DNA of 64,000 bases from a virus. The translations under genes were made by a program, and so were the position numbers. Positions 4,440 through 63,016 of the stretch are shown piece after piece; position 1 is the stretch's first letter; every line of letters begins with the position of its first letter. The notes below the pieces were generated by a model. That model was not told the DNA's origin, did not search any database, and worked only from the letters and a program-made list of their open reading frames with translations. The DNA lies in IMG/VR virus record IMGVR_UViG_3300037069_002825, positions 1 through 64,000 of that record; one strand, written 5' to 3'.

Positions 4440-5351
4440 ATGGAAGGTGTGACCACCGGCTCCGAGGCGCTGATCCCGGCGCTGCTCAAGAACGATAAAG
4501 GGGAACCCGCCGACGTCATCGGCGAACTGACCCTGCTCGTTGTCCAGCCCGACGGGACGGAGAAAACCTTCGACCTAGCCGAAGTCACCCACCTCGGCAC
4601 AGGTGAATACAACAAGGCCATCGTCTTCAAAGAATCGGGTCTGTGGCGTTACCGCTGGATCGACGGTGAAGTCGTCGCTGACGAGGGTACGATCGAGGTC
4701 GAATCGGCCTTCGACGAAGCGCTCGCGCCAGACCTCACGGACCTGCGAGTTCTTGTGCCCCAGGCGCGGCGGGCGTGCGAGGGGCCTTACGGCGCTCCCG
4801 CCGGCCGTCCGCCGCTCTCGGAATCGGTCATCTACGGCATGGTGGCTGACGCCTGTGCCGAGGTGATCCTTTTCAGCGGGACACTCTTCGGGCACGAACT
4901 GCTGGTCAAGCAACGCGATCCGGCGCGCGGCTTTCCGACCGAGTGGAAGACGGCGCAGACATTGAATCAGTGGGAGGGAACGATCATCATCTGCCAGGTC
5001 GCGCTCGACTACTTCTTCCACCTCTTCCGCGATCTCAAGACGAGCGAAACGCTCAAGAATGAGGGCACCGAGTGGACGTGGGCACTGTCGGCGAACGTGC
5101 TGCGCAACTATCTGGAATCGCTCAAAGAGGCGCGCGACAAGGCCCTCGAAGGTCTCCGCGCCCACAACCCCGTGCTCGACACCTACGCCTCGAACATCCG
5201 CATCCGCGACCAAGCGACGGTCGGCATTCTGGAGTGGTGGGACACGGTCAGCCCCGGCCTCAGCGGAAGCGTCGGTGTGCCGAGCGGCCAGGAGGCCGGC
5301 GTCATCCCCTGGACACCCGGTTGGACGGGGCCGGGCTGGTCGCCGGAATGA
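4440..5351 (+). CDS. Head-tail adaptor / head completion protein with N-terminal Ig-like domain
   Basis: Synteny; N-terminal beta motif (QPDG...G.Y...G.W.YRW); helical C-terminal part. Confidence 0.55.
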   Translation: MEGVTTGSEALIPALLKNDKGEPADVIGELTLLVVQPDGTEKTFDLAEVTHLGTGEYNKAIVFKESGLWRYRWIDGEVVADEGTIEVESAFDEALAPDLTDLRVLVPQARRACEGPYGAPAGRPPLSESVIYGMVADACAEVILFSGTLFGHELLVKQRDPARGFPTEWKTAQTLNQWEGTIIICQVALDYFFHLFRDLKTSETLKNEGTEWTWALSANVLRNYLESLKEARDKALEGLRAHNPVLDTYASNIRIRDQATVGILEWWDTVSPGLSGSVGVPSGQEAGVIPWTPGWTGPGWSPE

Positions 5352-55118: not shown

Positions 55119-55900
55119 GCACGCAACCCGACTACGAGTATCGGCTCTCGTGGGAGTGCCCGAGCGCCGCTTGTGTCATGGCTCATCAGGGCGTGGCTTG
55201 GGAGACGCTGACGGCTGAGGAATGGGACGGCCTTCCGTGGGAGTCGAGCTACCGGATCGCGGACGGCGGTGACATCTTCACGCAGCGACACACGCTCGAA
55301 CTATGGGCCGAGCATCACCACGAGCCCGTGCGCAACGTCCGCTTCGCGCGTCGCCCCATGCCCGATCCCGACGAGGGCTGGGACGAGATCGCTGAGCGTG
55401 GGGCGACGGGAGTAACCCACTGGAAGCCAGTTGACCGTGTCATGGCGCGGGCCGATGGCTCACCCGAGCACTCCCCGCACATCACGACGGCGCATCGCGT
55501 CTATGAGGGGAGCAGCGGTGAGATCGTGGTCGATCCCCCCGTTGACGGGCCGCACGTCTTCATCAACCGGCTGCGGTACGGGAACCTCTCGGAGCCGATG
55601 AGCGGGAGGGCGCTCCGCCTGCTACCCAACCCTCCGGTACCCGAAGACGACGACCTGTGGGAAGAGACTGCGGTCGGTGCCGATGGGGACCGTCTTGTCG
55701 GCCGTGACGACGTCCTGAAGGTCGGGAACGGCGAGCGGTTCTACACATCGCCTTCGTCAATCACTGCGGGCTCACCCGAGCACTCCACGGAGGAGGCGAA
55801 GGTCTGCAAGCTTTGCAACGGGAGGGGTTACCGGAAAGTGGCGGGTGCGCCCTACAGCGAACCGTGTGGCTGCGAGCACTCCACGGAGCCCGAGCGATGA
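55115..55900 (+). CDS. Three-module protein (includes a ubiquitin-like-looking middle module and a CxxCxG zinc finger)
   Basis: Modules separated by GSPEHS linkers. Confidence 0.55.
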   Translation: MSTQPDYEYRLSWECPSAACVMAHQGVAWETLTAEEWDGLPWESSYRIADGGDIFTQRHTLELWAEHHHEPVRNVRFARRPMPDPDEGWDEIAERGATGVTHWKPVDRVMARADGSPEHSPHITTAHRVYEGSSGEIVVDPPVDGPHVFINRLRYGNLSEPMSGRALRLLPNPPVPEDDDLWEETAVGADGDRLVGRDDVLKVGNGERFYTSPSSITAGSPEHSTEEAKVCKLCNGRGYRKVAGAPYSEPCGCEHSTEPER

Positions 55901-56445
55901 GCGATCGGCTTCGGATCGTCCCGATGATGCGCGACGAGGCGAACGATTTCGTGAAGCGCCATCATCGCCATTCGGGCATCCGCCAGGGCTACCGCTTTGC
56001 TCTCGGCGCCGCGCTCGGTGACGAGTTGGTTGGCGTGGCGATCGTCGGTCGTCCCGTGGCGCGTGGTCTGCAGGATGGCTGGACGGCCGAGGTTCTTCGG
56101 CTATGCACGACAGGCACGCGCAACGCCTGCTCGTTTCTCTATGGCGCTTGCTGGCGCGCTGCTAGAGCGCTCGGCTATACGAAGCTCGTCACGTACACCC
56201 TCGCGAGCGAGGCAGGAGCGTCGCTTCGCGCGTCGGGCTGGCGCGTAGTCGCCGAGGTAAAGGGCCGCGAGTGGACGACCCCGAGCCGCCCACGCGACCC
56301 AAGTCACCCACAGGATCGTCTCCGCTGGGAGCTGGCCGAGCACCCCACGACTGAACCGGCTGGACGTAAAGCGGTATCTGCTGAGGATCTCGCGCAGGCG
56401 ATTGACGGAGTTGCAGCCGGCATGATAGCTTCGCAACGCGCATAG
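55897..56445 (+). CDS. XF1762-family (Mom-like GNAT fold) protein
   Basis: AN.FV..HHRH...GVAIVGRPVAR..DG...EV.RLCT.G..NACS.LY...WR.ARALGY.K..TYTL..E.G.SL. Confidence 0.8.
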   Translation: MSDRLRIVPMMRDEANDFVKRHHRHSGIRQGYRFALGAALGDELVGVAIVGRPVARGLQDGWTAEVLRLCTTGTRNACSFLYGACWRAARALGYTKLVTYTLASEAGASLRASGWRVVAEVKGREWTTPSRPRDPSHPQDRLRWELAEHPTTEPAGRKAVSAEDLAQAIDGVAAGMIASQRA

Positions 56446-56478
56446 GCCAATATCAACGCAACGAAGAAGGGGAGGTCA

Positions 56479-56778
56479 GTGGTGGATAGACCCGAAGCAG
56501 TGAAGGTGCTGAGGACTCACGCGCAACGTCACTACGGTGAGCTTCGTTACGAGAAAATCACCCTAGTGCCGCTAATCAGGGGTGCGATCCTGGCGTCGAC
56601 GGACGAAACGGACGGAACGGAGTCTGGGTATGAGGTGGTGAACACGGCGATCGAAGCCCTTCTCGCGCCGGAGGGATCGGTGGCCGAGACGGGAAGCGAG
56701 CTGTTCATAGGCCGCGATGGCACCCTGTCGAAACTGGGGTCACCCGAGGCGGCTGGCCCACTGGCCGACGCTCAATAG
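56479..56778 (+). CDS. Hypothetical protein
   Basis: SD GGAGG. Confidence 0.5.
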   Translation: MVDRPEAVKVLRTHAQRHYGELRYEKITLVPLIRGAILASTDETDGTESGYEVVNTAIEALLAPEGSVAETGSELFIGRDGTLSKLGSPEAAGPLADAQ

Positions 56779-56781
56779 CTG

Positions 56782-57159
56782 ATGACCCGCGAGATTACGG
56801 TTACGTTCGGTGACGCGGGAGAGCCCACGGTCTACGTTGGCGGCGTCCGGCACCACTCGGTGGTCGACGTGATCTACCTTGAGCATGGGGCTCTTGAGGT
56901 CGGGAAGATCACCGTGGACCTGACGAGACCCGTGCGTCCGACGGTCGAGGAGCGCATGGCGGCGGCAACGCGCCGCCGCGAGCTGGAGCAGCGCATCAGG
57001 GCATATCCGGGAATCGCGACCGAGGCGCTGTTCGTCAACCTCGACTGCCGCACCTATCCAGGCGAGCACCCCAGGGGCGAAATGCTCGTGGATCTCGCGG
57101 AGTTGCATCGAGAAGGCAAGATCAAACGCGACGACGAGCAGAAATGGACCGTGATATAG
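56782..57159 (+). CDS. Hypothetical protein
   Basis: ORF, codon bias. Confidence 0.5.
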   Translation: MTREITVTFGDAGEPTVYVGGVRHHSVVDVIYLEHGALEVGKITVDLTRPVRPTVEERMAAATRRRELEQRIRAYPGIATEALFVNLDCRTYPGEHPRGEMLVDLAELHREGKIKRDDEQKWTVI

Positions 57160-57166
57160 TCGCGCC

Positions 57167-58282
57167 ATGGCCTCGATTGCCGGCAATGTAAGCGCTCTCT
57201 CTGCCGCCACGGCGCTCAACCCCGATGGTTCAGCGGTCATCAGCCTGACGGGGTCGGACGTTGCCCAGCAGCTTCGCTTCACGTCTAGCGAGGTTGTCAA
57301 CATCAGGGCCTCTCTCACCCCGCCATCGTCGATTCCCTTCGAACCGGGGATGAACACTGGAACGGAACCTGAGGACTTCCTTTGCCTCGCCAGGGAGGGT
57401 GTCAAGTTCGTCCGCGTCGAGATCAAAGCTGTGGACATATTTACGGCGCCGCCGACCACGTTGTCTCGCGCTAGCCTGGTCGTGGCGGCCTCCACCATCA
57501 TCGAAGAGTTCGCGGCGCAGGGTATTCGGGTGCAGCTCCTCGTGGGCGCCCACGGTTCGATGGTCTCACCCGAACACATGGCCGCGCTCGGTGACATCGC
57601 CAAGCGGTTCGGTCCCCACAGTGGCTTCCGCCTTCCGATCCGGCGGATCGAGCTGATGAACGAGACGAGCATGGGCTACCAGTACAACGACGGTCACGAA
57701 TCGGCGTCGTACAAGCTGCGCGCTCGCACCTACGCCGAACGCGCCAAGGAAGGCGCGCTCGCGATGCTCCCCTACGGCGTCGGGGCCATCGTGCAGGCCG
57801 AGGACGGCGGTTCCGGTTCCAGCGTCTGGGTCGACGAAATGTTCTCCGCCGTGCCGGATCTCGCTAGTCACGCCGGCGGCTGGGTGATCCACGCCTACCC
57901 GTCGCAGGGCAAACCGGGTGTCGTCGACACCGGCGGCGCACCGAAGCTGGAGCGGATGATCGCCGACCTCGCTGCGCACGGTGATCACACTATTCCGATC
58001 GAAATCACCGAGTGGGGCTTTTGCTCCAACAACGGAGAGGTACTCAACAACGGCCAGCACTTCACCTGGGCGGAAGCGGCGGTGATGGCCAAAGAACACC
58101 TCGCAGAAATCAAGGGCATCTGCGGGCCGCGTCTGCGTTCGTTTATGGTGTATCAGGTGCGCGACCAGGCGCCGAGTGTCCCGGCCAGCGCGGACCATGA
58201 ACGCTACTTCGGTGTGCTCGGCCACGAAGGGCAGCCTAAGGGTGCCTACACCGAAGCCATCGAGCACATCCTCGCCAGCTGA
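57167..58282 (+). CDS. Glycoside hydrolase, clan GH-A TIM barrel
   Basis: ELMNE acid/base, H.Y, ITEWG nucleophile, FG.L.....PK. Confidence 0.75.
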   Translation: MASIAGNVSALSAATALNPDGSAVISLTGSDVAQQLRFTSSEVVNIRASLTPPSSIPFEPGMNTGTEPEDFLCLAREGVKFVRVEIKAVDIFTAPPTTLSRASLVVAASTIIEEFAAQGIRVQLLVGAHGSMVSPEHMAALGDIAKRFGPHSGFRLPIRRIELMNETSMGYQYNDGHESASYKLRARTYAERAKEGALAMLPYGVGAIVQAEDGGSGSSVWVDEMFSAVPDLASHAGGWVIHAYPSQGKPGVVDTGGAPKLERMIADLAAHGDHTIPIEITEWGFCSNNGEVLNNGQHFTWAEAAVMAKEHLAEIKGICGPRLRSFMVYQVRDQAPSVPASADHERYFGVLGHEGQPKGAYTEAIEHILAS

Positions 58283-58349
58283 CGATTCACCCGCAGTTTG
58301 CGTGGTGATCACAGCGGGACGCGCCTCGGTTAGTGTAGGGTCATGCCAC

Positions 58350-58523
58350 ATGGACGACCCCGATGCTCCGCTGTTCGACACACCAAAGCTCGACAGGGAC
58401 GAAGGGATGTCGCTTGAGCCGACGTTCACGCCGATGTGGCTTGCGTCACTGGCGTTGGTCCTGGCCCTCGTGGCGTTCATCGTGGGGAGTCTGGCGCTGT
58501 TCATCGCCGTAGGGCCCCGCTGA
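58350..58523 (+). CDS. Small single-pass membrane protein
   Basis: Hydrophobic C-terminal helix; TGATG overlap. Confidence 0.45.
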   Translation: MDDPDAPLFDTPKLDRDEGMSLEPTFTPMWLASLALVLALVAFIVGSLALFIAVGPR

Positions 58524-59050
58524 TGCTCGCGACGCGGCCGCCCGACCTCCTTCATCGGCTCTATCCGCTCAAGCGTGAACTGAACGAATATGCCGACAAA
58601 TATGTCAATCAGGGGCCCGACGGTGAAATGGGTGCCGACTGGGTGGTCTTCGGCTCCTTCGTCTTGCTCCTCCACGGCCTGCGCGAGGGTATCGGCGATG
58701 TCGACGTGTTCGTGGCGCCCAGTCTCTGGGTCGCACTGTCCGGCACGCTGAACTGGCGCCTTCAGCTACCCAATCGTAAGGACCCTCCCCTCCTCGAACG
58801 CCTCGTCGGCGGGGTCCGCGTCCACGCTTTCTACGCTTGGACGACCAGCGAACCCGTCGTGACAGCCGAGGAGGCGCGCGAGCAAGCCGAGGTCGTCGGG
58901 GTGGGCGTCGATGCGTGGCCGTGCGTCCCCCTCTCGCTCATTCGCAGACACAAGATCGCCTCCCGGGAGTACAACCCCGGCAGTGTCGGTCACAACAAGC
59001 ACCGAGCCGACATCGCGGCAATCGACGGCTACCTCGGGGGTCAAGCGTGA
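58523..59050 (+). CDS. Minimal nucleotidyltransferase-fold protein
   Basis: hFGS..L..HG.....D.D motif; C-terminal K....K...D. Confidence 0.65.
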   Translation: MLATRPPDLLHRLYPLKRELNEYADKYVNQGPDGEMGADWVVFGSFVLLLHGLREGIGDVDVFVAPSLWVALSGTLNWRLQLPNRKDPPLLERLVGGVRVHAFYAWTTSEPVVTAEEAREQAEVVGVGVDAWPCVPLSLIRRHKIASREYNPGSVGHNKHRADIAAIDGYLGGQA

Positions 59051-59490
59051 TCGAGGTCTGGACCGACGGCGCCTGTTCGCAGAACCCGGGACCGGGCGGC
59101 TGGGCGTTTGTCATCCAGTCAGCCGAGGGGACAACGGAGGGCTCGGGCGGACACGTGTCTACCACAAACAACCGCATGGAGCTAATGGCTGCGATCCAGG
59201 GCCTCGCCGAACTTCCCGACGAGAGCGGCCCGATCGAGGTGGTGTCCGACTCGGTCTATGTCGTCGAAGGCGCGCGGGTGTGGATGCACAAGTGGAAGGC
59301 CAGGGGTTGGCGCAGGGCTGGCGGACCCCTGATCAACGTGGACCTCTGGAAGTTGCTCCACGCCCAGGTCGAGCGACTGTCACCGACCTTCCGCTGGGTA
59401 AAGGGGCACGCCGGCCACGCGCTCAACGAGCGCTGTGACGGGCTGGCGGTTGCAGCCGCCCTTCGGGCTACGAGGAAGTTCTCAACCTGA
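59047..59490 (+). CDS. rnhA: Ribonuclease HI
   Basis: TDGACS.NPGPGGW, TTNNRMEL.A, SDS.YV, N.DLW, WVKGHAG...NE.CD.LA. Confidence 0.95.
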   Translation: MIEVWTDGACSQNPGPGGWAFVIQSAEGTTEGSGGHVSTTNNRMELMAAIQGLAELPDESGPIEVVSDSVYVVEGARVWMHKWKARGWRRAGGPLINVDLWKLLHAQVERLSPTFRWVKGHAGHALNERCDGLAVAAALRATRKFST

Positions 59491-59626
59491 CACTCGTCGC
59501 CCCGAGGTGAGCAAAAGTGGGGTCTCGGGAAACTCCCTTCTTCCTGCGTCTCCGCAATTAATCATAGCTCTTCGACTCGCTAGCGCTCGCCGCGCCGCCT
59601 ACGGCTGGTAAGAAAACATAATCACC

Positions 59627-59890
59627 GTGTCAAATGTCCGCAACGAGCAGGTGAAACGCGATGTGCTCGCCTACGTCAGCTGGGTTTGGAGTCTCCAGGC
59701 GCGTGAGCGCGAACGCAACGATCCGGCGATCGACTGGCAGTCCGACATGAGCTGGGACGAGATAATGGCTTGCACCGGATGGGAGGGTCGGAACCTGATC
59801 TCGGCGATGACGCTGGCGCCGGGCGACCTCACCGGCAGTTCCGAGATCAACGCGCAGCTCTACTGGCCCGACACACCGCCGCAGCGGTAG
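59627..59890 (+). CDS. Hypothetical protein
   Basis: ORF, CATAAT upstream. Confidence 0.5.
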   Translation: MSNVRNEQVKRDVLAYVSWVWSLQARERERNDPAIDWQSDMSWDEIMACTGWEGRNLISAMTLAPGDLTGSSEINAQLYWPDTPPQR

Positions 59891-59902
59891 ATATGTAATG
59901 AT

Positions 59903-60074
59903 CCCCAAATCGGTGCGGTCGGCCACTGATGTGCACATGGGAACCCACAAGCCGACAGCGCGAGCGAACCTTCCTGCGACCCCCACGCCACGGGCACGTG
60001 CGGGAATCCCGGTAGGTCGGTGTGGCGCCGACCCCCGGGCTCTCGCGTCCACTGCCCCTCAGTGAGTGTTGGGG
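59903..60074 (+). ncRNA. Candidate multibranch structured RNA
   Basis: Seven nested helices with G-U pairs on the + strand. Confidence 0.55.
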
Positions 60075-60089
60075 CCGGGGCGTCGAAGG

Positions 60090-60118
60090 TTGCGCCCCGC
60101 AAAGCTTCCCGTTATGAT
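60090..60118 (+). promoter_or_regulatory. Promoter TTGCGC-N17-TATGAT for the tRNA-like RNA
   Basis: 17-nt spacer; predicted +1 coincides with the acceptor-stem 5' end. Confidence 0.65.
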
Positions 60119-60124
60119 GCGTGG

Positions 60125-60287
60125 GCGCCCCTAGCTCAGTTAGCCCAGCCGCTTGAGCTAAGCACCAACGTAGTGCTTAGCGAGGTGAAAGAGCACCCGT
60201 GGACGAAACGGGAGGTCGTCGGTGGTGACCAAGGCCTCGATTGGATCGATCTGGGCGGCGGAAACCAGGGCCAGCCGGCGGGGCGCA
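60125..60287 (+). ncRNA. tRNA-scaffold RNA with expanded D- and T-loops
   Basis: 7/4/5/5-bp stems with canonical spacers (TA, A, AGGTC); D-loop 53 nt, T-loop 52 nt. Confidence 0.8.
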
Positions 60288-60300
60288 CTCGAAGTGTTGT

Positions 60301-60678
60301 ATGATCCCACACGTGGATATTTATGACACCTACTCGGAGGTGCAGCGGCGGAAGGATAGGCCGATCTGGGAGGGCGAGGGCCCTTCCCGTGAGATGATCG
60401 AGAAGATCAGCGCGACGTTTCGCGCACAGGTGGGTCGCGAGATCGCCTCGGCCGAGCTAAAGACGACCCTGGACGGCATGGGCTGGCTGATGAGAATGGC
60501 CGCCGAGGAGGACGTCCCGCTGGAGGCTCTGATGCAGATCGCCGAAGACATCGAAAGTAAAGCGCGGGCCAACATCGCGCGGACCTCGATCGGGGTTCAC
60601 GACCAACTGTCAGTAGGCGTGGGCGCGGGCTTCTTCACTGGCCTGTGGGTCGGCATCCTATTCGAGCGGGAACGATGA
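60301..60678 (+). CDS. Hypothetical protein
   Basis: ORF, codon bias. Confidence 0.55.
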   Translation: MIPHVDIYDTYSEVQRRKDRPIWEGEGPSREMIEKISATFRAQVGREIASAELKTTLDGMGWLMRMAAEEDVPLEALMQIAEDIESKARANIARTSIGVHDQLSVGVGAGFFTGLWVGILFERER

Positions 60679-60914
60679 CCCAGCTCCGCTACAAGCAGTA
60701 CACCCGCGACGCGCTGCTACGCGAACTGGAACGGCATGCCGACTGGGACACGACGGGCGGCTACGCGCTGGCAATCCAACATTCGCGCACTACAACCCGC
60801 AGATATCTCGACCAGCTCGTCAGGGAGGGACGCGTCGAGGTATGGAAGATAACCCATTGCGGTCGAGCCCCGGGACCGGGGTCGTCGATGCACCTCTACC
60901 GGATAAAGATATGA
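60675..60914 (+). CDS. Winged-HTH protein
   Basis: TT...A......TTRRYL.QL..EG.V. Confidence 0.55.
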   Translation: MTQLRYKQYTRDALLRELERHADWDTTGGYALAIQHSRTTTRRYLDQLVREGRVEVWKITHCGRAPGPGSSMHLYRIKI

Positions 60915-61030
60915 GCTGCATCGCCCTCTGCCTGCTGGTGGCCCTCGTAGGCGTCTGGTCACCCGGCGCCTACGTCGCACGCTCTGACGACCGGGCGGCG
61001 CGTCGGATGATGCGCTGCTATCGCCGCCGC

Positions 61031-61213
61031 TCACGTAGACGCTGGTAGCCACGCCTCACCAGCGTGAAGCTGGCGCTCCTGCGGTGTCGCCGGCAGGCAT
61101 GCGGCCTCGTTGGCCTTGCGTAGGGCATCCTCGCCACCCTCGGCCATGATCTCGACGTTCTTCACCCAGGTATCGTCGGGGTCGTACATGGCCGCCTTCC
61201 ACAGCTTCCTCAC
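61031..61213 (-). CDS. Small hypothetical protein
   Basis: GTGA overlap. Confidence 0.45.
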   Translation of the reverse strand: MRKLWKAAMYDPDDTWVKNVEIMAEGGEDALRKANEAACLPATPQERQLHAGEAWLPAST

Positions 61214-61449
61214 GTGACACCCATCGCCTCGTGGGCTTCGGCCTCAACCCGGGCCTCAGCCTCGGCTTCGGCCCGCGCCTGCACTCGGTAGTGGTTGGCG
61301 AGATCCTCCACCTCGGGGTAGAGCGAGCGCAGGTGGGCCTCGTAGTCATCCACTGCCGTTTGCAGCAGGATCGTCTTGCCACAGTGTGCGCACATCTCCT
61401 CGCCGGGGAGATTGATGCGTTCGCACCGGCAGAGCTGCGTGGGCGTCAT
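61210..61449 (-). CDS. Small Cys-containing protein
   Basis: CxC...CxxC. Confidence 0.5.
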   Translation of the reverse strand: MTPTQLCRCERINLPGEEMCAHCGKTILLQTAVDDYEAHLRSLYPEVEDLANHYRVQARAEAEAEARVEAEAHEAMGVT

Positions 61450-61516
61450 GGTCGGGCCACCCTAACACGCTGTCGTGATGTTCTGTCCGAGCTGCATGGG
61501 ACTGTCTGACTACGTT

Positions 61517-61620
61517 GCCCATGTGGCGGAATTGGTAGACGCAGCCGGTCTAAACCCGGACAAAGCTCGAAGCCTCCTGGCGGCGGCGACGAGATGTGGG
61601 TTCGACTCCCACCGTGGGCA
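61517..61620 (+). tRNA. tRNA-Leu(TAA)-like, atypical (C33, 35-nt variable arm, no encoded CCA)
   Basis: GCCCATG/CGTGGGC acceptor stem, TGGCGGAATTGGTAGACGC D-arm, GTGGG-TTCGACT-CCCAC T-arm, discriminator A. Confidence 0.8.
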
Positions 61621-61707
61621 CCTTGTAGACTCTAGGGGATGAAAAGTCCGCGAATTGCGAGAACAAGGACCATGGTCTCGCGCATCTTCACGTAGGCTTC
61701 CTAGATC

Positions 61708-62232
61708 GTGCCGTCGCCGCCAGGAAAACTCCACGTTCGCGAGCGCATAGTGCTCCAGGCGCTCGCGCACTATCGCAGCACGCCACTGACTCCGGCCCAG
61801 GTCCAGCAGCGCGCCGAACGTGACAGCAGCGTGCTGCTGATGCGGCGGGCCGTGCACACTACGCTCGGCGGCCTCGTGCAGGGTGGCTTCGCCAACGCGC
61901 TGCGCTACAGCGAGGGCTATCGATACACCATCACCGAGGACGGTCGCCGCGAGGCTTCGATGATCACCCCAGATGAGGTCGAGCCCTCCTTCGCTCGGAT
62001 GGGGCTCGATCTACTGCTCGAACGATTCCCTACTCGCGACGTGGTGTCGATCGGCGATGGCAGCCGTTCTGGCGGCGTCTGGTTGGTCGTACGCTTCGCT
62101 GATGATGCGCGCTACGTGATCTGGCGGAACACGGGGCACATCTACGAGATGGACGATGATGGCGGTGTCGGTGACGACCCGGTGATCGAGAACCCCGCCT
62201 ACCAGTGCAACGATTGTTCAACCATAAGGTAA
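61708..62232 (+). CDS. Winged-helix protein with a second small domain
   Basis: L..LV..G.......Y.IT..GR motif. Confidence 0.55.
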   Translation: MPSPPGKLHVRERIVLQALAHYRSTPLTPAQVQQRAERDSSVLLMRRAVHTTLGGLVQGGFANALRYSEGYRYTITEDGRREASMITPDEVEPSFARMGLDLLLERFPTRDVVSIGDGSRSGGVWLVVRFADDARYVIWRNTGHIYEMDDDGGVGDDPVIENPAYQCNDCSTIR

Positions 62233-62233
62233 G

Positions 62234-63016
62234 GTGGGTAGAGCAGTGGATGAGGTAATCAGGGACAACAAACCCGGAGAGCGCTGGCACAGCGAGGGCG
62301 AGAGCTTCGAGCATTACGTTGAGCGCCAGTTCGTCTCCCTTCACGAAAGGCTGGACCGAATGGCCCCAGTAGAGCAGGAAATCGCCGCAGATGTGGACAC
62401 GCTTGCACAGGTGATCCCACAGCTCGCCACGGACATCGGTGACCTTCACACGACCGTCACCGAAAAGGAAACCAAGCTCACAGAAGCAATCGCCGCCAAG
62501 ACCGAAGATGACGCCGAGAAGGCCGCGCTGGAAGCGGAACTGAAAGCGATCCAGGGCCTGAAGCCGCAACTGGACTCGATCGTGCAGCAGGCGCAGAGCG
62601 TGGTGCAGCCGACGGGGGCGGGAGCGCCCGGCGCCGGAACATCTGCCGCAGCGCCGGGGGGGACGGTAGCGCCCGGCTTCGGAACATCCACCGCAGGTGC
62701 CGCACCGACTGGCCCGGGCACCAGTGCCGGGAGCAGTGTCGCGGCGGCGGCAGCTGGACCGGCCGCAGGGGAGAAGCCCAAATACACCTACCACGGTCCC
62801 GACGTGACCAAAGTCGATTCGGTCGTCTGGATCGAGACGACGCTGGTCGACTCGGCTGGCGAAAAGGTGTGGGAATTCGCGAGCGACACACCCGGAGGCG
62901 CCCCCACGGGCGCCGAGGCCGGCGTGTGGGAGGTTGCGAGCCCCCCCTTCACCGACACCGCCGCAGTACAGGGCTCGTCGGGCCAGGAGGCAGTCGCGCC
63001 GCCCGTCGCTGGGTAA
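62234..63016 (+). CDS. Coiled-coil plus low-complexity hypothetical protein (start may be 62360)
   Basis: ORF; GAAAGG before ATG 62360. Confidence 0.6.
   Translation: MGRAVDEVIRDNKPGERWHSEGESFEHYVERQFVSLHERLDRMAPVEQEIAADVDTLAQVIPQLATDIGDLHTTVTEKETKLTEAIAAKTEDDAEKAALEAELKAIQGLKPQLDSIVQQAQSVVQPTGAGAPGAGTSAAAPGGTVAPGFGTSTAGAAPTGPGTSAGSSVAAAAAGPAAGEKPKYTYHGPDVTKVDSVVWIETTLVDSAGEKVWEFASDTPGGAPTGAEAGVWEVASPPFTDTAAVQGSSGQEAVAPPVAG

Follow-up and report, generated by a model that had tools for sequence, protein, structure and literature searches.

Phage T5 encodes two RNAs, RNA1 and RNA2 (144 and 125 nt), that are annotated in NC_005859 as “tRNA-like stable RNA with unknown functions.” Both are derived from tRNAs and oversized, are unsuited to decoding, and lie among or near tRNA genes. 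The species 1 and 2 RNAs of phage T4 are comparable to them. YrlA, a Y RNA of bacteria and mycobacteriophages, has a tRNA-like domain that mimics the tRNA elbow (the T and D arms). Here we describe an element that, by analogy, would belong in kind with the loose and poorly described class of phage tRNA-like stable RNAs. It lies in IMG/VR virus record IMGVR_UViG_3300037069_002825 (79,793 bp, 63.7% GC), the first 64 kb of which (positions 1 to 64,000) are here called the window, and it combines a complete set of tRNA-Arg(ACG) stems with inserts of roughly 50 nt in place of both elbow loops, the D loop and the T loop.

Like RNA1 and RNA2, the element is phage-encoded, tRNA-derived, and oversized, and it too lies near a tRNA-like gene, an atypical one 1.2 kb away. 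Its layout is nevertheless the opposite of that of T5 RNA1, to which it has no sequence similarity. RNA1 keeps an intact elbow (its D arm is normal and its T arm is GGTTCAACTCC) and is expanded in its anticodon/variable part, whereas the element keeps the anticodon arm and has its elbow replaced. YrlA is comparable to the element in size, is likewise noncoding, and mimics a portion of a tRNA, and it binds a protein rather than the ribosome; the part that it mimics is the part lost here. The YrlA family (RF02553) gave no match to the element at E ≤ 10, and no gene for a Ro/TROVE domain was present in the 79.8-kb record. The element was not called as tmRNA (RF00023) by ARAGORN or Rfam, and its T arm is not intact. 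An earlier note on this stretch, made from the sequence alone, had stated that its author knew no family like it. That was too strong, since D-loop-expanded phage tRNAs proved to be common and the T5 tRNA-like RNAs are annotated; what remains of the statement is that double replacement of the elbow loops is, among the loci examined, so far unique to this element.

Structure and ancestry of the element

The stems of the element follow the standard spacing of a tRNA, with a 7-bp acceptor stem, 2 nt, a 4-bp D stem, 1 nt, a 5-bp anticodon stem, a 5-nt variable loop, and a 5-bp T stem, and all 21 base pairs are present (Table 1). The earlier note had described this geometry as exact and had reported a D loop of 53 nt with a 9-bp hairpin, a T loop of 52 nt, and the absence of TTC, U33, and CCA. 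All of these observations, including the coordinates of every stem, were reproduced on the sequence. When a descriptor of the geometry alone (loops of 7 to 60 nt and at most one G-U pair per stem) was run on both strands of the 79.8-kb genome, the element was the single match, and random genomes of the same dinucleotide makeup gave 0.086 matches each. The core tertiary positions, read from the sequence and interpreted through established tRNA structure, are kept as well: U8, A14, A21, A9 with U12-A23, G46 with C13-G22, G15/C48, and G53-C61.

The departures from a tRNA are concentrated at the elbow. The D loop is several times longer than the usual 7 to 11 nt and lacks G18G19, and the T loop, normally 7 nt, lacks the TTCRA motif. 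The anticodon loop, GGACGAA, has ACG at the anticodon position but carries G32 and G33 where C/U32 and U33 are expected. It is at the elbow that the ribosome, RNase P, and numerous enzymes make contact with a tRNA. With GG at positions 32 and 33, no T loop, no G18G19, and ~105 extra nucleotides at the elbow contact sites, the element as read from its sequence cannot decode codons. ARAGORN at default settings called no gene at the intact element, and an Rfam search of 2.2 kb gave no match there even at E ≤ 10 (the gathering threshold of the tRNA family RF00005 is 29 bits); the earlier note had correctly anticipated that tRNA scanners would miss it.

Compared with bacterial tRNA-Arg(ACG) (RF00005), the element has the same first 15 nt, GCUC/GAGC D stem, A26, ACGAA, AGGUC, G53-C61, and GGGGCGC-A end. 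It differs in the lengths of the D loop (53 nt versus 9 nt) and of the T loop (52 nt without TPsiC versus 7 nt), in the absence of G18G19, and in having GG at positions 32 and 33. We searched 185,579 prokaryote species, each represented by a single genome, with a pattern made of the element's 5' 15-mer, a D loop of normal size, GAGCA, 17 free bases, and AGGTC. The pattern matched 94 stretches, and the results that follow rest on 80 of these 94 loci. All 80 were tRNA-Arg (64 with the anticodon ACG, the remainder with UCG or UCU), and their 3' ends, which lay outside the pattern, were GGGGCGC followed by A or G. The ACGAA of the element also occurs as part of the CUACGAA loops of acidobacterial tRNA-Arg examples. 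Once the inserts had been shortened in silico to give loops of normal size, ARAGORN (default settings) called tRNA-Arg(acg) in 10 of 30 trimmings. Features of tRNA-Arg identity are present in the element (C35, G36, and A73), and the AAA before the D stem 3' strand supplies a candidate A20. On the evidence of the cellular scan, the trimmed ARAGORN calls, and the core tertiary positions, we regard descent of this sequence from a tRNA-Arg(ACG) gene as settled. The anticodon arm differs from those of the cellular tRNA-Arg genes seen, and a search of 401 genomes from the class to which a Leucobacter genome belongs did not turn it up. Since it nevertheless pairs perfectly, its sequence suggests long, compensated divergence and not a recently acquired copy.

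The two inserts are not equivalent. In the D-loop insert, a hairpin as long as the perfect 9-bp hairpin arose in a fraction of only 0.0012 of shuffles (P of about 0.001), and this is the sole insert with significant structure. The earlier note's description of structured domains in both loops thus holds for the D insert; the T insert is at chance level. The element as a whole is predicted to form a self-contained closed fold, also when the 3' flank is added. Both the 9-bp hairpin and the anticodon hairpin present ACG at the center of a 7-nt loop, and a GAGC-N motif precedes each, so the two ACG hairpins could stem from an internal duplication. No other copy of the inserts was found in this genome or in related genomes, and the idea that they are mobile mini-elements was rejected for want of a second copy.

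Table 1. Coordinates of the element, its parts, and neighboring genes in the window. Element numbering starts with position 1 at window 60125. MFE, minimum free energy.
Feature	Window position	Strand	Remarks
Whole tRNA-Arg(ACG)-derived element	60125..60287	+	163 nt, closed by acceptor stem; MFE z-score -2.74
Acceptor stem 5' strand GCGCCCC	60125..60131	+	Pairs 7/7 with 60280-60286 (element 1-7/156-162); pair probability ~1.0; identical in cellular tRNA-Arg
D stem 5' strand GCUC	60134..60137	+	Element 10-13/67-70; U8 A9 before, A14 G15 after
D-loop insert	60138..60190	+	53 nt (element 14-66); no G18G19; 3' end AAA (A20/A21-like); MFE z-score -2.68
Perfect 9-bp hairpin GCUAAGCAC/GUGCUUAGC in D loop	60157..60181	+	Element 33-41/49-57; 7-nt loop CAACGUA, central ACG; pair probability 0.98-1.0
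D stem 3' strand GAGC	60191..60194	+	Followed by A26
Anticodon arm CCCGU/GGACGAA/ACGGG	60196..60212	+	Stem element 72-76/84-88; pair probability 0.25-0.63
Variable loop AGGUC (G46, C48)	60213..60217	+	Same in cellular tRNA-Arg
T stem 5' strand GUCGG	60218..60222	+	5/5 pairs (one G-U) with 60275-60279 (element 94-98/151-155); pair probability ~0
T-loop insert	60223..60274	+	52 nt (element 99-150); no UUCRANY motif
T stem 3' strand CCGGC	60275..60279	+	Read from sequence
Acceptor 3' strand GGGGCGC + discriminator A (A163)	60280..60287	+	No encoded CCA; same 8-mer closes cellular tRNA-Arg(ACG)
Promoter-like TTGCGC-N17-TATGAT	60090..60118	+	Read from sequence; ends 6 nt before acceptor 5' end
125-aa gene, C-terminal GAGFFTGLW	60301..60678	+	ATG 60301; codon score 0.60
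87-aa gene	End 59890		Upstream of gap
tRNA-Leu(UAA)-like gene	61517-61620	+	Rfam 45.7 bits; sole Rfam tRNA in window
Small NTase-like gene (~175 aa)	58523-59047	+	Motifs FGS-x12-IGDVD-F, DPPLLE, VHAF-W; alignment A3

D-loop-expanded tRNAs in other phages

A scan of IMG/VR with TAGCTCAG, 25 to 55 free bases, and AGAGCA-N17-AGGTC returned 23 loci. Fourteen of them are full cloverleaves in which the 7-bp acceptor and 5-bp T stems are intact and the D loops measure 27 to 56 nt; the expanded loci come from unrelated phages of 36 to 67% GC. Two types could be distinguished. The smaller has an extra hairpin of ~30 nt, is mostly tRNA-Glu(UUC), and scores 56 to 65 bits as a tRNA, and its additional D-loop hairpin shows compensatory changes across unrelated phages (alignment A4). 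Loci of this type, with the insert after AGUGGUCAA, are L021 (9768-9863), L024 (7451-7546), L026 (7012-7107, minus strand), L035 (2182-2278), L025 (2235-2329), and L028 (3719-3811), and further examples are L004 (1501-1592, minus strand) and a second one in L026.

The larger type, with D loops of 42 to 56 nt, comprises L019 (750-869), L023 (3199-3310), L029 (433-538), and L034 (4431-4541), and it is missed by the Rfam tRNA model at gathering score. Position 33 is C in L019, A in L023 and L029, and G in L034. Because U33 is replaced in all four, they are probably nondecoding look-alikes. The L034 example lies a few bases before a tmRNA gene (4547-4986).

These genes resemble the element in their hairpin-forming inserts (27 to 56 nt), their intact stems, and, in several cases, the lack of U33. 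In L019, L020, L021, L023, L028, L029, L034, and a tRNA-Glu-like gene of G001, the insertion site (the D loop from A14-R15 to A21) is that of the element, and the frame of L023 (ACGCCCC, GAGC A CCCGG, CCGGG AGGUC) is close to the element's own. The difference lies in the T loop, which is 7 nt long in all of them, canonical in most and off-motif in L034 and perhaps in L018; no expanded T loop occurred in roughly 470 kb of D-loop-expanded loci. Nor are these genes related to the phage studied here in sequence or gene context. Extra hairpins in phage tRNAs thus recur in the D loop, where they are tolerated and in some cases selected. We found no description of D-loop- or T-loop-expanded phage tRNAs in the literature, a weak negative given that “D-loop” mainly retrieves papers on recombination.

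The distant phage G001, which has only its replication module in common with the phage studied here, carries, in addition to the tRNA-Glu-like gene with a D-loop hairpin, a tRNA-Leu-like gene (L009, 1501-1623) whose variable arm has ~50 extra nt. A repeated motif, TCCGAAGCC-TGTCTAG, occurs at L009 positions 1470-1500, 1707-1730, and 1795-1825, each time 5' of a tRNA or tRNA-like gene; a phage promoter is its probable identity. A group I intron-like match of 31.8 bits (gathering score, 50) was seen on the minus strand of L010 (494-696), ~800 nt from a tRNA gene.

The phage and its accessory region

The stretch occurs in six sequencing runs, all of them soil-metagenome DNA, and no RNA run is listed as containing it. 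No match of the stretch to cultured phages was obtained in a close or a distant DNA search, and the DnaB protein of the phage is at most 29% identical to those of cultured phages. The one syntenic relative, G005 (82,353 bp), shares most genes at 40 to 74% amino acid identity. A 15-kb accessory region of the phage (window 49000-63700, compared with G005 55900-62900) has almost no counterpart there; the two atypical tRNA-like genes lie in this region, as do RNase HI and the NTase-like gene. No tRNA was found in G005, and G005 gave no match to covariance model R1.

The element sits on the gene strand in a 420-nt gap without a convincing gene, 14 nt before the ATG of the 125-aa gene, with which it may be cotranscribed. 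A near-repeat, TGTAATGATCCC (59893-59906) and TGTATGATCCC (60296-60308), flanks the entire noncoding gap, and the second copy includes that ATG. We rejected the idea that the element sequesters the start of the 125-aa gene, as the two fold separately, and likewise an upstream “170-nt multibranch RNA” (59903-60078), which folds no better than its shuffles (z-score, -0.61). The GAGFFTGLW segment of the 125-aa gene product is probably a membrane segment or anchor, and the small protein family to which the product belongs has an invariant C-terminal GAGFFTGLW-G-L motif. The only relatives of this gene among 5.8 billion proteins were P0002 and a protein of L002 (2989-3375). The L002 protein is 27% identical to the product of the 121/125-aa gene, and no such RNA lies upstream of the L002 gene. 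The JGI metagenomes yielded no relative of the 121/125-aa gene, a protein search retrieved none of the 87-aa gene, and the genes flanking the element had no Pfam or PHROG match.

The neighboring tRNA-Leu(UAA)-like gene is itself irregular: position 33 is C, G27 and A43 are mismatched, and the variable arm contains ~32 extra nt. ARAGORN at default settings made no call on it and, with introns allowed, called a tRNA-Ala with a 29-nt intron. The family of the NTase-like gene (alignment A3) had no Pfam or PHROG match. A “system” of the NTase, RNase HI, and the RNA was considered and rejected, since in G005 and L048 the NTase-like gene adjoins DnaB; in both genomes RNase HI lies apart from it and no tRNA-like RNA is present.

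Function, decay, and other explanations

We consider the chances about evenly balanced that the element is a working, nondecoding, expanded look-alike of a tRNA. The signs of function are that 21 of 21 stem pairs are intact although both elbow loops have been replaced completely, that the divergent anticodon arm still pairs perfectly, that the 9-bp hairpin is significant, that the fold is closed, and that the locus is a noncoding gap close to a second atypical tRNA. The D-loop-expanded loci of other phages and the T5 RNAs serve as precedents. Such an RNA would be transcribed on the plus strand; it would start from the promoter-like site or else form the leader of the 125-aa gene. The acceptor stem would close it into a self-contained module, with its bulky elbow keeping it off the ribosome. 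The module could then act as a protein-binding mimic of tRNA-Arg(ACG) that presents the acceptor end and one or two ACG hairpin loops. Candidate targets of such a mimic would be a host anticodon nuclease, ArgRS, and the A34 deaminase.

More specifically, the element may be a working RNA of undescribed design, in which the elbow has been swapped for two domains and which serves as a decoy or inhibitor for a factor directed at tRNA-Arg(ACG), such as an anticodon nuclease in phage defense, TadA, or ArgRS; we think this unlikely. The missing elbow would exclude a decoy RNA from pathways that depend on RNase P and the ribosome. Phage tRNAs take part in conflict with tRNA-cleaving defenses (PMC10264068, PMC11555353), and for this reason a decoy is the most concrete guess that we can offer.

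Several results weigh against a functional RNA. No homologue of the element was found in IMG/VR, where two pattern scans were aimed at it (the homologue check proposed in the earlier note), or in the JGI metagenomes, and covariance model R1 had no match in five related or relevant phage records. The element therefore has no covariation or conservation to show, which is the main weakness of the functional claim. Its sequence was identical across the six soil DNA runs, with zero variants (the contigs were identical or fragmentary), and G005 lacks it, the counterpart of window 49-63.7 kb having been replaced there. The T insert has a z-score of -0.66, and its longest stem, 5 bp, was equaled in 25% of shuffles. 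The 6-bp complementarity between the D and T inserts was equaled in 36%, and “mutually complementary D and T loops” were accordingly rejected as being at chance level. The lowest free energy was -75.4 kcal/mol, compared with -70.0 kcal/mol when the cloverleaf was enforced; the energy model pairs the D region with the T region and gives the D and T stems a pair probability of ~0. Nearest-neighbor models often misfold real tRNAs, so we take this preference as a caution and not as a refutation. An alternative cloverleaf, in which GAGC at 60155-60158 serves as the D stem, the long hairpin takes the place of the anticodon arm, and the CCCGU hairpin becomes a long variable arm, reached -67.6 kcal/mol, 2.4 worse than the one in the earlier note. 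A rod with three hairpins is a further competing fold. That note had also placed a promoter at the 5' end; TTGCGC-N17-TATGAT is indeed there, but it matches the consensus at 8 of 12 positions, a consensus scan did not call it, and no terminator was found. The note's further suggestion, that RNase P processing may be unnecessary, is speculative. The paired ACG loops were spotted only after the fact, and a mimic or decoy function is purely inferred.

Much of this evidence would also suit a dead gene, and we hold decay to be a serious possibility, if somewhat short of an even chance. A phage tRNA-Arg, or a D-loop-expanded look-alike, would have been disabled by insertion into the T loop and by the changes at positions 32 and 33, and would now be drifting in a fast-changing accessory region, its stems still intact only because so little time has passed since the damage. 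The unstructured T insert, the absence of the element from its sole syntenic relative, the empty homologue searches, and a cloverleaf that the energy model does not favor all fit such a history, and T5 likewise carries a tRNA that is flagged as a pseudogene. Set against it is the distribution of the changes: the two large ones are confined to loops, and none of the 42 stem bases and hardly any of the core tertiary positions have been altered. The divergent yet perfectly paired anticodon arm speaks for long, compensated divergence and not for recent damage, the highly significant D-insert hairpin resembles the D-loop hairpins that are conserved in other phage tRNAs, and 160 nt of junk is rarely kept by phages. 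The conclusion of the earlier note, selection rather than decay, nonetheless went too far; what supports it is the intact stems, and the homologue searches came back empty.

That the locus is translated, in whole or in part, as a 94-aa frame (60020-60304), with the tRNA-like sequence an ancestral remnant inside a gene, appears improbable. The frame is open and was called by one gene caller (P0003), and within the element its codon log-odds of 0.316 per codon were equaled by only 0.14% of random sequences (P = 0.0014), a level like that of the neighboring small genes. Most of this score, however, comes from four GAG and four CAG codons, scores as high occur in 27% of antisense windows of real genes, and the two ends of the frame are negative (5' end, -0.18; 3' end, -0.68). 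Of its seven Leu codons, five belong to rare types, the point at which the signal begins lacks a start codon accompanied by a ribosome-binding site, and the frame has no homologue and no Pfam or PHROG match. Capture of the inserts from coding DNA may account for the codon periodicity.

We find it very hard to credit that the element is an intron-bearing tRNA-Arg from which both inserts are excised to leave a working tRNA. ARAGORN did accept some trimmed versions as tRNA-Arg(acg), and archaeal tRNAs, according to one report (PMC3241643), can have introns in the D and T loops. Any excision would leave a T loop without UUCRANY, a D loop without GG, and G33; the inserts are far too small for self-splicing; and the phage encodes neither a tRNA_int_endo splicing endonuclease nor an RtcB ligase. 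For these reasons, splicing to an ordinary tRNA is unlikely. We know of no protein-spliced tRNA intron pathway in bacteria.

A chance arrangement of complementary GC-rich segments can be set aside almost entirely: the geometry alone is expected at the low rate given above, and a looser descriptor (loops of up to 70 nt and two G-U pairs allowed) gives one spurious match per phage genome, but the spurious matches lack U8 and A14 and lie inside genes, whereas the element has an exact tRNA-Arg 15-mer, GAGCA, ACGAA, AGGUC, and the GGGGCGCA end and sits in a noncoding gap.

What the element would mean depends on which of these explanations applies. If it is a relic, it is an ordinary by-product of the fast turnover of a phage accessory region. 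Irrespective of the element, tRNA genes with D-loop inserts of 27 to 56 nt are common in uncultured phages, and because the larger D-loop-expanded genes escape standard tRNA models, inventories of phage tRNAs and tRNA mimics are incomplete. If the element is made and functions as a nondecoding look-alike, phages would remodel the tRNA elbow too and not just the anticodon end, as in T5 RNA1 and other look-alikes. In that case, since the acceptor and anticodon features that survive are those of a single isoacceptor, the target would presumably be a particular host factor that deals with tRNA-Arg(ACG).

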